Of a stretch of 64,000 bases of DNA, positions 12,001 to 33,000 are shown in pieces. The DNA lies in assembly GCF_041886205.1 (NCBI RefSeq), contig NZ_CP169030.1. One strand, written 5' to 3'. How positions within the stretch are numbered: position 1 is the first letter of the stretch; each line of letters opens with the position of its first letter. The position numbers were made by a program. Source of the stretch: Escherichia coli. GTDB taxonomy: Bacteria; Pseudomonadota; Gammaproteobacteria; Enterobacterales; Enterobacteriaceae.

Positions 12001-15000
12001 TCGATTTGGGTAATAGCATCTTTTTGCTGATCGCCAGCAGATTTAAAATTTTTTCTGAAAACAAATGCCCCCATTTTAATTTCTCCTGTGTTCTGTAATA
12101 CCTGGATATCCGGGTAAAGGGGCGTTTACGCCCCCCGCTGATTTACATGTTCTGCTCGCTATGTATTCTTCTATTCACAATTGAAAATAAATGTTTTTTT
12201 TGCGATATCACTTTTCTTTTTATAATTCGCACAATTTCAGGCATCGACTTGTTCAGGGGGATCCATGCAGTATCCCCGTTCAGTTCATCATATACACACC
12301 CATAGATATGAAGCATTCCGTTCATTACAAAGCAGTACATTGAAAAATGTTCATATTTTTTCTCCGCACTGATTAACTGAAAATAACCTTTTATTAAACC
12401 CTGTTTCGGTGAAGGATTAATTAACCAGCCATTATCCAAAGATAAACAAATATGCTCAATTATTTTCTTTTCCATATTTACTCCAACGAAAGCTTTATCC
12501 TAATTAATGGGGCATTGCCGCCCCTTGTGTTAAATGGCGTAGCCTCTTATCTGACTCAAAAACTGTTTGAAGTGATCAGCTTCCGCAATGTTGATATGGC
12601 GGAACTGCGTATCCACACCCCGGCTGAGCGCGTAGCTATAGCTGAAAGCCATCTTTTCCGGGTGGCTTTTGCGATATTTTTTCAGCTCATTCAGACTGCT
12701 GAACTCCAGGAGGTCCCACTCTTCTCGGGTGTTTTTTTTCTTTTCGGCAACAAGAAGCGTGTACGACGCGGTGTTAACGTGGATATTTCGGGTACTCATC
12801 CTGCTTTCTCCTCTCTCTGGTTTTCAGCCCCCATCATCTTTTGAGTTTCGGGAGCCGCGGTTTTGACGTTTTGCGGGGACCTGCCTTTTGTTCCCTCCGG
12901 TATTAACCATCACCTTTTTGAGAACCTTCGCCGCAAGGGGCATCACTGCCACGGCCTGACGCACCTGTCCTGGGCAGAACGCAAAATTTTTTACCGGGTT
13001 CTGGGTAAAAAATTTTGTGGGCTGTTCATTTACCCTGGACAGTCAGTGCGGCAGGTTGTGGCTGTATCAGCCCCCGGCGACAGGGGCTTAAACAGGTGTA
13101 TGGCACCGGACACAACAACGGGCAGGGACCCGCCGCAACGACGTGAAGCGCGGTTTGCGAAACGGCGTTGCCCCTTACATCCCGGCGGCCTTTTGCCGGG
13201 ATGCCGGGAGCGCAGGCCACGGCGCGACAGAGGCGGCGCGACCGGAACGGTCGCTGCAAGCCCGGGGTTTCGCGTCAGGGATGGAAGCCCGCCAGGGCGG
13301 AGACAGCTCCGCTGGCTCCGTTCACGACAGCCCGCCCCGCCAGGGGGACGCCCGGAAAAGGCATAAGCAGGAGAACAACAAAACAGACAATAATCAGGGC
13401 AGCAGTAATCAGAGTCAGAACAGGAGGAAAAAGAGAATAATCAAAGGGAAGGTGATGTGATTTCTGACAGGTCATAAACAGAGAAGGCGGGGGAAAAGAA
13501 CGGGCGCCGCAGGCGCACGTTCATCCCCGTTCCCGGAGGGAAACGGCCTTCCTGGCAGTCTGGTTGTTCATGCCCGTACAATGCCAGCAAGGAGAAAGGG
13601 GCCACCGGCGAACCAGCAGCCCCTTTATAAAGGCGCTTCAGTGCAGTCAGACCAGCATCAGCCCTGAAAAGGCGGGCCTGCGCCCGCCTCCAGGTTGCTA
13701 CTTACCGGATTCGTAAGCCATGAAAGCCGCCACCTCCCTGTATCCGTCTCTGTAACGAATCTCGCACAGCGATTTTCGTGTCAGATAAGTGAATATCAAC
13801 AGTGTGAGACACACGATCAACACACACCAGACAAGAGAGCTGCGTGGTAGTTTCATGGCCTTCTTCTCCTTGCGCAAAGCGCGGTAAGAGGCTATCCTGA
13901 TGTTGTCTAAGCATGCAGGGGCCTCGTGGGTTAATGAAAAATTAACTACGGGGCTTTTGTCCTTCTGCCACACAACACGGCAACAAACCACCTTCACGTC
14001 ATGAGGCAGAAAGCCTCAAGCGCCGGGTACATCATAGCCCATATCCCTGCACGCTGACCACACTCACTTTTCCTGAAAATAACCCGCTCACTCAGGCTGT
14101 TTACGGGTAATCTGTGTGATTGTTGCCGCATCACGCTGCCTCCCGGAGTTTGTTCGGCACCATCCACCGCTCCATCTCACGGACAGCGTGACCGGCCTCT
14201 CTTGCTGCAAGACTGGCTTCCGCAATAACCTGCCAGAACGGCATATCCTGCCACTGCCAGCGTTCCATTCCGGCCAGTGACGGAAAACGCTCGCCCCACT
14301 GCCAGAACAGGGTTTCCAGGTCATGCTCTGCCACCCGGTCACTCCAGCGTGCATGCCAGCTTCCGACTGTTTCCGGCGAATGGAATGCCAGTTCGATTTC
14401 AGCCTGAGCGACCAGCGCCTGGTACGCACGGGCTTTCTGCTCTGCCTCCCGTGCCTGCTGGCGGCTGTACTTCTGCATGACCAGCGCGGATTTATGGCGA
14501 CTGCGCTCCCTGACACGAAACCGCACCGACGGAAACAACCGCTCTGCTGCATCACCAGGAAGGGGAAGGAGGCAGACCTCGCCCTGTGTTTCAATCAGCA
14601 CATCGATGGCATACAGCCACTGAAGACGGTTGCCGTGCAGTTCTTCTGCGGTCAGGGACGGCATGAAAAATCGCAGGTCAGACAGCGATATCCTGCGGCT
14701 TCCGTTCAGACAGCGGAAAAACGCCCCCGCATACGGATATTCGCCAGCGTGTTACCCTGATGGCGGCGTTTTTCTGTCTCCGCCACCGCCCGCCATGCGG
14801 CCTGTTGCTCTGTGCTGAGGGGAACCAGTGCCTGTGAACGTACGCTCATACCTGACCTCCTTCCGCCATCAGGATATGGATGATGTCGTTAACGCTGTAC
14901 CCCTGCGTATCCAGTGACGCCGCCAGTGCCAGTGAATGACTGACGGCTTCCGGTGCAAACCGCCGCTGTACCTGAACCACCGCAAACGGCTCACCACCGG

Positions 15001-30000: not shown

Positions 30001-33000
30001 TAATCATTGCTTTGCGTTTTTTTATTAAATCTTGCAATTTACTGCAAAGCAACAACAAAATCGCAAAGTCATCAAAAAACCGCAAAGTTGTTTAAAATGA
30101 GAGCAACACTACAAAAGGAGATAAGAAGAGCACATACCTCAGTCACTTATTATCACTAGCGCTCGCCGCAGCCGTGTAACCGAGCATAGCGAGCGAACTG
30201 GCGAGGAAGCGAAGAAGAACTGTTCTGTCAGATAGCTCTTACGCTCGGCGCAAGAAGAAATATCCACCGTGGGAAAAACTCCAGGTAGAGGTACACACGC
30301 GGATAGCCAGTTCAGAGTAATAAACTGTGATAATCAACCCTCATCAATGATGACGAACTAAACCTCGATCTCAGGTCACATGACGAAGGGAAAGAGAAGG
30401 AAATCAACTGTGACAAACTGCCCTCAAATTTGGCTTCCTTAGCAATCACAGTTCAAAAAGTATGAGAAAGTCCATGCAGGCTGAAGGAAACAGCAAAACT
30501 GTGACAAATTACCCACAGTTGGTCAGAACAAATGTGACGAACCACCCTCAAATCTGTGACAGATAACCCTCAGACTATCCAGTCGTCATGGAAGTGATAT
30601 CACGGAAGGAAAATACTATATGAGTCGTCTGGCGGCCTTTCTTTTTCTCAATGTATGAGAGGCGCATTGGAGTTCTGCTGTTGATCTCATTAACACAGAC
30701 CTGCAGGAAGCGGCGGCGGAAGTCCGGCATACGCTGGTAACTTTGAGGCAGCTGGTAACGCTCTATGATCCAGTCGATTTTCAGAGAGACGATGCCTGAG
30801 CCATCCGGCTTACGGTACTGACACAGGGATTCGTATAAACGCATGGCATACGGATTGGTAATTTCTTTTGTTTCACTAAGCCGAAACTGCGTAAACCGGT
30901 TCTGTAACCCGATAAAGAAGGGAATGAGATATGGGTTGATATGTACACTGTAAAGCCCTCTGGATGGACTGTGCGCACGTTTGATAAACCAGGGAAAGGA
31001 TTCATAGCCTTTTTCATCGGCGGCATCCTCTTCAGGGCGATAAAAAACCACTTCCTTACCCGCAAAACTCTTCAATGCCTGCCGTATATCCTTACTGGCT
31101 TCCGCAGAGGTCAGTCCGAATATTTCAGCATATTTAGCAACATGGATCTCGCAGATACCGTCATGTTCCTGTAGGGTGCCGTCAGATTTTCTGATCTGGT
31201 CAACGAACAGATACAGCATACGTTTTTGATCCCGGGAGAGACTATATGCCGCCTCAGTCAGGTCGTTTGACTGGACAATTCGCGGGCTATTTTTACGTTT
31301 CTTGTGATTTATAACCGCTGTTTCCGCCATGACAGATCCATGTGAAGTGTGACAAGTTTTTAGATTGTCACACTAAATAAAAAAGAGTCAATAAGCAGGG
31401 ATAACTTTGTGAAAAAACAGCTTCTTCTGAGGGCAATTTGTCACAGGGTTAAGGGCAATTTGTCACAGGGTTAAGGGCAATTTGTCACAGACAGGACTGT
31501 CATTTGAGGGTGATTTGTCACACTGAAAGGGCAATTTGTCACAACACCTTCTCCAAAACCAGCATGGATAAAGGCCTACAAGGTGCTCTAAAAAAGAAGA
31601 TCTAAAAACTATAAAAAAATAATTATAAAAATATCCCCGTGGATAAGTGGATAACCCCGGGGGGAAGTTTTTTCAGGCATTGGGTGTAAGCAGAATATAT
31701 AAGTGCTGTTCCCTGGTGCTTCCTCGCTCACTCGAGGGCTTCGCCCTGTCGCTCGACTGCGGCGAGCACTACTGGCTGTAAAAGGGCAGACCAAACATCA
31801 TGGTTCTGTGTTCATTAGGTTGTTCTGTCCATTGCTGACATAATCCGCCCCACTTCAACGTGACATCGCACGAAGATTTCTATTGTTCCTGAAGGCATTT
31901 TCAAATCGTTTTCGTTACCGCTTGCAGGCATCGTGACAGAACACTACTTCCTATAAACGCTACACAGGCTCCTGAGATTAATAATGCGGATCTCTACGAT
32001 AATGAGAAATTATGGGAGATTTTCCCGACTGTCTCGTTCGCTTCTCAGTGGATAACAGCCAGCTTCTCTGTTTAACAGACAAAAAACAGCATATCCACTC
32101 AGTTCCACATTTCCATATAAAGGCCAAGGCATTTATTCTCAGGATAATTGTTTCAGCATCGCAAACTGCACCCGGTGCCGTGCAGCCACATCCAGCGCAA
32201 ACACCTTCGTGTAGACCTCCGTTGAGCTGATGGACTTATGCCCCATCAGGCTCTGCAGGACCTTCAGCGGTATACCGGCATACAGCATGTGCATCGCATA
32301 GGAATGGCGGAACGTATGTGGTGTGACCGGGACAGAGAACGTCACACCGTCAGCAGCAGCGGTGGCAACCGCCTCCCCAATCCAGGTCCTGACCGTTCTG
32401 TCCGTCACTTCCCAGATCCGCGCTTTCTCTGTCCTGCCTGTTCGTTTATTACGCCGTTCCATGGGGATTTTCAGTGTGGCCACCATCGTCTGCAGCTGGC
32501 TGACGTACCAGGAGTCGGAAGAGCGGAACCAGCCGGTGAGTCTGCTGCCCGGCTGGCGTTCTTCCTGCCGTCCTGGCGGCTTTTTCGGTCCGTTGTTTCA
32601 GGGTCGCAAGCTGCACAAACGGATACGGGGGCGCGAGCGAAAAATCCCCCCGCGTCAGCGCCAGTGCTTCATTAATACGCGCGCCGGTGTTCCACAGAGT
32701 GGCCAGCAACATCTTGCGACGCAGATCCGGGACGTAATGGAGCAGGGCACTCACCTCGGGAGCCAGCAGATATTTCGGCAGTTCATCATGAACCATCGAC
32801 ATCTGGCGAAGTGCCAGAGCTGCCGGATAATCAATGACAACAGGAAGTTGTGGAGACTGTACCGGCAGAATACACTGCCGGTACCATGGCTGCAGACTGG
32901 CTGTGTATAACGGAGCCTGACATTTATATTCCCCAGAACATCAGGTTAATGGCATTTTTGATGTCATTTTCCCGGTGGCTGAGATCAGCCACTTCTTCCC

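Follow-up and report, generated by a model that had tools for sequence, protein, structure and literature searches.

Frameshifted backbone genes and an uninterrupted clb segment in an F-like plasmid of Escherichia coli

A stretch of 64,000 nucleotides (nt) from Escherichia coli contig NZ_CP169030.1, termed here the window, consists of an F-like plasmid backbone at positions 1–36.2 kb and, farther along, clb genes of the pks island. Backbone genes that include psiA, a leading-region DNA methylase gene and resD are frameshifted by single-base indels, and the clb genes are not. This raises the question of whether the indels are errors in the sequence or mutations of the plasmid. The initial annotation had named four frameshifted genes, psiA, the methyltransferase, an open reading frame (ORF) at 26272–26780 and resD, and had proposed either region-specific consensus problems or genuine decay on this replicon. 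The frameshifts are real mutations and the sequence is trustworthy at these sites; the artefact reading is refuted. With a probability of about 0.9, they represent loss-of-function mutations that were fixed and passed on vertically in an F-like (IncFIA-type) plasmid lineage, in accessory genes that are dispensable. Decay is thus the part of the earlier proposal that stands, but it is not specific to this replicon, as the methylase and resD lesions are also found in sister plasmids that have no clb genes. The phenomenon is ordinary lineage-specific plasmid pseudogenization, which is already known and is nothing new in kind.

Lesions in psiA, the methylase, resD and two further genes

The disrupted genes are as follows.

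14131..14849, minus strand: psiA pseudogene, with a 1-nt deletion at 14742/3
25204..25886, minus strand: leading-region DNA methylase pseudogene, with a 1-nt deletion in an A7 run
25963..26268, minus strand: homologue of an F hypothetical ORF of 101 amino acids, with Tyr51 changed to a stop codon (TAG at 26116–26118)
26301..26804, minus strand: remnant of a DUF1281 gene, of which about 157 N-terminal codons are left
32139..32923, minus strand: resD (F protein D, tyrosine recombinase) pseudogene, with one base inserted at 32860, one inserted at 32519 and a 24-nt loss at 32156

The lesions are confirmed by alignment to the F plasmid (NC_002483), a comparison already suggested in the initial annotation, and by tblastn with F proteins. 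All three genes, psiA, the methylase and resD, are intact in F; relative to F, the window has one base fewer in psiA, one fewer in the methylase and two more in resD. The reconstructed frames match the reference proteins.

The psiA locus is 719 nt in length, compared with 720 in F. One G is missing at 14742/3, where its loss had been placed approximately before, such that GG on the coding strand is reduced to G and CTGGCGGAATAT becomes CTGGCGAATAT. Codon 36 is the last in frame and codon 48 is a stop, which leaves an N-terminal ORF of 47 amino acids (14706–14849). A C-terminal ORF of 177 amino acids, with an ATG start, is found at 14131–14664. The single ORF of about 239 codons expected for PsiA is therefore not present, and the fragments match positions 1–38 and 63–238 of the 239 positions of the NCBIfam profile NF010258. 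Past the frameshift, the sequence is 99.5% identical to F PsiA (residues 36–239).

The methylase locus is 683 nt in length instead of 684. The G of CTGAAAAAAGACGCG is gone and AAAAAAG has become A7 (T7 on the plus strand, 25694–25700). The indel had correctly been assigned to this run, although it is the deletion of the G itself that makes the run. A TAA stop codon two codons past the deletion (25686–25688) overlaps an ATG in the sequence TAATG, and the gene is split into ORFs of 66 and 160 amino acids. These match positions 1–64 and 68–226 of NF010253 (NF010253/PRK13699); homology is distributed over two frames, and one ORF of about 227 codons is not found. The role of the leading-region methylase is known from F biology.

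The initial annotation overlooked the premature stop of the small ORF at 25963–26268. This stop site is shared with the covering loci, and the NCBI Prokaryotic Genome Annotation Pipeline (PGAP) reports an internal stop in the sister plasmids as well. The adjacent DUF1281 gene was already a remnant before its 1-nt indel, with roughly 385 nt deleted at about 26311–26331; in the sister plasmids PGAP lists the gene as incomplete. A further A is deleted at 26428–30, where AAA on the coding strand is AA. An indel in the 26272–26780 ORF (26301–26780) does exist, but the A5 run at 26403–26407, to which it had been attributed, is unchanged and lies about 25 nt away. The description of this ORF as an otherwise recognizable gene holds for its DUF1281 homology and not for its extent, as only a truncated N-terminal portion is present.

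In resD, an extra T is found on the coding strand at 32519, within the interval 32518–32522 first proposed. It is not the only indel, and alignment to F reveals a second inserted base at 32860. Because of these two insertions, residues 1–21, 22–134 and 101–268 are in three different frames by tblastn, and there is no full-length ResD ORF of about 268 codons with the N-terminal and the catalytic C-terminal domain. One in-frame 24-nt repeat unit in the 3′-end region has also been lost at 32156 relative to F and pSA31IncF. PGAP lists resD as frameshifted in pSA31IncF and in the M7424 plasmid. In F, ResD participates in multimer resolution at rfsF. The disrupted genes of the window merit annotation as true pseudogenes.

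Recurrence of the lesions in other assemblies

Sequences of 51 nt that span each lesion have an exact match in every other covering locus in NCBI, Logan and ENA assemblies. The assemblies in which the five 1-nt indels and the nonsense codon recur exactly include several NCBI drafts of different whole-genome shotgun prefixes, Logan assemblies of SRA and DRA runs, and ENA metagenome scaffolds. Both the lesions and their presence in other assemblies are direct observations. The psiA deletion allele is found in 10 other loci; its carriers are L018 and L025–L034 in our numbering of loci (five draft genomes at NCBI and five Logan assemblies of sequencing runs). The methylase, nonsense codon and DUF1281 lesions are carried by L019–L022, L024, L026, L028, L036–L038, L040 and L043, and both resD insertions by L019–L024 and L044–L048.

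Exact look-up of the truncated products gives a similar picture. The 47-amino acid PsiA fragment is present in 34 blocks of the assembly collection, including GCA_002229125.1, GCA_002228695.1, GCA_023162125.1, GCA_036886615.1, GCA_000303635.2 and five separate SRA runs (Logan). The 66-amino acid methylase fragment is present in 42 blocks, metagenome scaffolds and Logan runs among them, and a ResD fragment of 117 amino acids in 33 blocks. The covering loci differ from the window by 0–16 substitutions over 21 kb, and therefore several of them are distinct isolates. In searches of PLSDB and of 5,426 complete E. coli genomes in RefSeq, the psiA deletion was not found among the matches listed, and every listed top hit has the undeleted allele. 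These top hits had pointed to a private variant or error, a notion that was overturned by the look-up in the larger assembly collection.

Of the five single-base indels, that in the methylase A7 alone is situated in a homopolymer of at least four bases; the other four are in runs of three or fewer, and the base context of each site rules out homopolymer error. A self-comparison of the window places the nearest repeated segment at least 715 nt from every lesion site. This rules out repeat-driven mis-consensus, and the view that the disrupted genes sit among repeats does not hold. Other 1-nt length differences from distant relatives, at an intergenic A7 (43990) and at a C4 (16565), are also found in sister assemblies, as is an extra 22-nt iteron at 31430. 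As all checked indels are reproduced in sisters, the window has no excess of private indels and no sign of a raised error rate. The lesions are neither private to one assembly nor situated in long homopolymers or repeats. Instead, identical lesions are found in related but non-identical replicons, with reconstructed frames that match the reference proteins, as is characteristic of inherited pseudogenes.

Two layers of lesions and the clb segment

Part of the backbone is matched at 99.6–99.9% identity by plasmids from the strains M7424, M00057 and M11957 (Australia, human) and by pSA31IncF (Thailand, water buffalo). Full alignment of NZ_CP063154 (M7424 unnamed1) and NZ_CP076277 (pSA31IncF) reveals about 99.9% identity to the window over 24000–36198. 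Both plasmids have the methylase deletion, which is also common to every covering clb-plasmid locus. They also share with the window the resD insertions at both sites, the small ORF with its nonsense codon and the truncation of the DUF1281 gene; all of these are pseudogenes in RefSeq, and the methylase and resD are labelled as frameshifted. The two plasmids differ from the window in several respects. They have no clb genes, and an IS66 follows a longer pifA where the window has a TnEc1-type transposon. The psiA site is of the F type and the base at 26430 is undeleted; the 1-nt DUF1281 deletion at 26428–30 was not seen in these clb-less sister plasmids. In addition, a ParB-like leading-region gene is frameshifted by a C5 at the position of the C4 (16565) in the window, where this gene is intact and encodes 652 amino acids. 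The 12.5–24 kb segment of the window is only about 95.6% identical to these plasmids, compared with 99.9% for the 24–36 kb segment, and therefore the backbone is a recombinant mosaic.

The lesions form two layers. An older layer, present in an ancestor shared with the clb-less sisters, would comprise the 1-nt loss in the methylase, the two insertions in resD, the stop in the small ORF and the loss of roughly 385 nt from the DUF1281 gene. Given their presence in plasmids without clb, the methylase and resD lesions are most likely older than the clb acquisition. A younger layer would consist of the psiA G deletion and the 1-nt DUF1281 deletion, seen only in sister backbone copies, several of which are proven clb carriers. 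The lesion set is a two-layer lineage marker that could be used to trace the family of clb-carrying F-like plasmids. The reconstructed resD and methylase genes have ratios of non-synonymous to synonymous changes (pN/pS) of 0.11–0.17 relative to intact homologues, in the range of intact neighbouring genes, with too few changes since inactivation to measure relaxation. Thus, these genes were functional for nearly all of the divergence and were inactivated recently.

Two relatives with the psiA deletion have lost additional sequences. L026 (GCA_002228695.1) has an ssb-psiB fusion and has lost tra genes between traE and traD. In L028 (Logan SRR36103916), a large part of the leading region is gone, and the tra genes extend from traK into a TraD-like product. 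Accordingly, structural decay is ongoing in the lineage.

The region between the backbone and the clb genes, together with the clb segment, contains the following features.

35118..36266, plus strand: truncated pifA (KAP P-loop NTPase), with a TnEc1-type Tn3-family transposon inserted at about 36197
36231–39215: TnEc1-type Tn3-family transposase
39742–41949: traD-like gene, fragment of a chromosomal-type integrative and conjugative element (ICE)
41921–43111, plus strand: chimeric ORF of 396 amino acids, between pifA and clb
44193..64000, minus strand: clbS, clbQ, clbP, clbO, clbN, clbM, clbL, clbK and part of clbJ, uninterrupted

In the chimeric ORF, the N-terminal part matches the TIGR03747 ICE membrane protein (residues 27–219) and the C-terminal part the final portion of a reverse transcriptase/maturase of a group II intron (residues 212–362), which suggests that an intron fragment cut short the ICE gene. 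The pks island sequence from 43225 on is 99.73% identical to the chromosome of E. coli BCE049. Over clb there are 55 substitutions and no coding indel; 31 changes are synonymous and 19 non-synonymous, with a pN/pS of 0.19, and this signal of selection is directly observed. The chromosomal islands of BCE049, SI-NP020 and JML285 are 99.6–99.7% identical to the window from clbS to clbJ, also without coding indels. They adjoin ICE or IS66 sequences in the chromosome, whereas the clb genes of the window are joined to the F-like backbone via TnEc1 and a fragment that comes from another ICE. The SI-NP020 and JML285 islands, from phylogroup A/B1 strains, are among the closest and are of the non-tRNA 'configuration 2A' (PMC8209727).

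The clb island would have come recently, by insertion of TnEc1 and the ICE fragment into pifA. The exact truncated PifA product of 382 amino acids, which marks the TnEc1 junction, is found in 23 contigs of other assemblies, draft or Logan. The junction of pifA with TnEc1 is present in L019–L024, and L019–L021 continue via the ICE fragment into clbS, clbQ and clbP. Sister contigs with clb genes are found, for example, in GCA_022813005.1 (JAIPVX010000128.1), GCA_023162125.1, GCA_051196015.1, GCA_005391385.1 and Logan DRR103030; these are 99.84–100% identical to the window, and every lesion from the methylase to resD that they cover is identical. No plasmid that matches the clb part of the window was found in PLSDB, and the junction from pifA and TnEc1 to clb is in no complete RefSeq E. 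coli genome searched. A plasmid location for clb is not reported in the pks literature examined, a limited search that is no proof of absence. An F-like plasmid that has an intact tra segment (traC to traM) and a complete-looking clb segment, and that recurs in drafts, is a more notable object than the frameshifts.

The remainder of the backbone is organized as follows.

1–7.8 kb: traC to traM
about 9–27 kb: leading region
14846..15283, minus strand: psiB, intact
27.8–30 kb: sopAB
30.6–31.3 kb: repE
32.1–36.3 kb: resD, ccdAB, pifC and truncated pifA

The order psiB-psiA, methylase, sopAB, repE, resD, ccdAB, pifCA is common to F and the window. SopA and SopB are 100% identical to those of F, RepE is 99.6% and CcdA and CcdB are 99% identical; the leading region is about 6–10% divergent from that of F. 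psiB is full-length and in a single frame, with 96.5–97.9% identity to references. When aligned to reference proteins, traC (partial), traR, traV, trbG, trbD, traP, traB, traK, traE, traL, traA, traY, traJ, traM and other leading-region genes are also in a single frame, and the remaining backbone genes tested are all full-length, with one frame each. Thus, the window segment keeps intact traC to traM, psiB, ssb, sopAB, repE and ccdAB, and has lost an intact ResD resolvase, PsiA and leading-region methylase.

The nine clb ORFs have terminal stop codons only. The initial annotation was correct that clbN, clbK, clbO and the tra frames present in the window (traC to traM) are uninterrupted. It had argued that random homopolymer error would be expected to hit the clb genes too, but the argument is weak. 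Recognizable coding sequence amounts to 25.4 kb in the backbone and 19.7 kb in clb, and all frameshifts would fall in the backbone by chance with P=0.10 if there are four events and P=0.057 if there are five; in addition, only one site is a homopolymer. The contrast between backbone and clb is not significant, and the pattern is at most suggestive. The clb genes are intact because they arrived recently, are 99.7% identical to chromosomal islands and are under purifying selection, and not because of regional sequence quality.

Alternative explanations

Several points weigh against the reading of the frameshifts as inherited losses in dispensable genes. Recurrence was established from other assemblies and not from raw reads of the assembly to which the window belongs. 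GCA_022813005.1 and GCA_002229125.1 are both 100% identical to the window, and one or both may be the source record or a near-clone. The backbone is mosaic, and the psiA deletion is also carried by L032, whose backbone is only 95.7% identical. We infer the order of the psiA deletion and the clb acquisition from few loci. Neutral decay and selected loss are not separable on these data. The hit genes would be dispensable, and a finding that counts in favour of this is that deletion of psiA in pED208 neither reduces transfer nor raises the mating-induced SOS response (PMC8406263). The SOS inhibitor of the psi locus is PsiB and not PsiA (PMC8406263), and the SOS-inhibition role that had been assigned to psiA does not apply to it.

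Perhaps some of the losses were adaptive. Loss of psiA might be favoured if PsiA counteracts the suppression of SOS by PsiB/SSB, and loss of the methylase might spare the host a cost. Unrelated F-like plasmids (L009–L017) show at least six other types of damage to the 5′ end of psiA: another 1-nt deletion, situated in a G5 run, single-base insertions, a nonsense codon, a short and a larger deletion, and insertions of IS21. The 177-amino acid C-terminal ORF is left in every case, and it is on record in 209 collection blocks. The presence of the window's own deletion allele on the divergent backbone of L032 also points in this direction. The 177-amino acid fragment was the query in this survey, so that only 5′ lesions are detectable and intact copies are uncounted. 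Moreover, the large majority of F-like plasmids in both searches have undeleted psiA, and drift is expected to make pseudogenes of accessory plasmid genes. Adaptive loss is therefore judged unlikely as an explanation of the frameshifts. The more specific proposal, that psiA is repeatedly inactivated under selection in F-like plasmids, with 5′ lesions that spare the ATG-initiated C-terminal ORF, is more doubtful still. If it were true, the psiA lesion would be an adaptation of the clb plasmid and not decay.

It might also be asked whether the genes are expressed despite the frameshifts, by transcriptional or translational slippage on the methylase A7 or by assembly of split products, such as the methylase halves or the 177-amino acid PsiA fragment. 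One A added in the A7 run would restore the methylase frame, the stop of its N-terminal fragment overlaps the ATG of the C-terminal fragment, and the ATG-started PsiA fragment is kept behind several different 5′ lesions. However, F, CP099268 and TUM10008 each have an intact homologue, a single ORF with AAAAAAG at this position. The methylase frameshift is therefore a derived deletion and not a conserved recoding site; the A7 motif is made by the deletion and is not conserved in diverged homologues. Efficient transcriptional slippage usually requires runs of about 8–9 A or longer, and resD has two uncompensated shifts without a slippery context. Continued expression is thus very improbable. That the indels are homopolymer miscalls, or products of collapse or mis-polishing near repeats, has next to no likelihood: the A7 site, the repeat copies and sopC repeats of the leading region, and the missing psiA deletion among the matches listed from PLSDB and complete RefSeq E. 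coli speak for it, and against it stand five indels that recur in many independent assemblies, four of them outside homopolymers and all remote from repeats, with no window indel absent from the sister assemblies at the sites checked. Inherited loss of function in dispensable genes remains the explanation that we favour.

The PGAP annotation of psiA shows a peculiarity. In the F plasmid of EMG2 (L008, 639–1401), psiA is a 763-nt frameshifted pseudogene according to PGAP, and the same is found in L003 and in the M7424 and pSA31IncF plasmids (L005 and L007). The 239-amino acid PsiA of F nevertheless matches NF010258 end to end. The flag seems to be an oddity of annotation linked to a reference whose C-terminus is longer. 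With the flag also on the canonical F plasmid, it was rejected as proof of the psiA lesion, and direct alignment was used.

The repeats of the leading region consist of four diverged copies of about 550–740 bp, which are 84–95% identical and are located at 10285–11027, 12795–13426, 18193–18926 and 21475–22044. Their equivalents in relatives are short 'frameshifted' ssb-like or hypothetical pseudogenes according to RefSeq. Adjacent to repE, at 31430–31451, the window has one 22-nt unit (AGGGCAATTTGTCACAGGGTTA) more than F and the M7424 plasmid.

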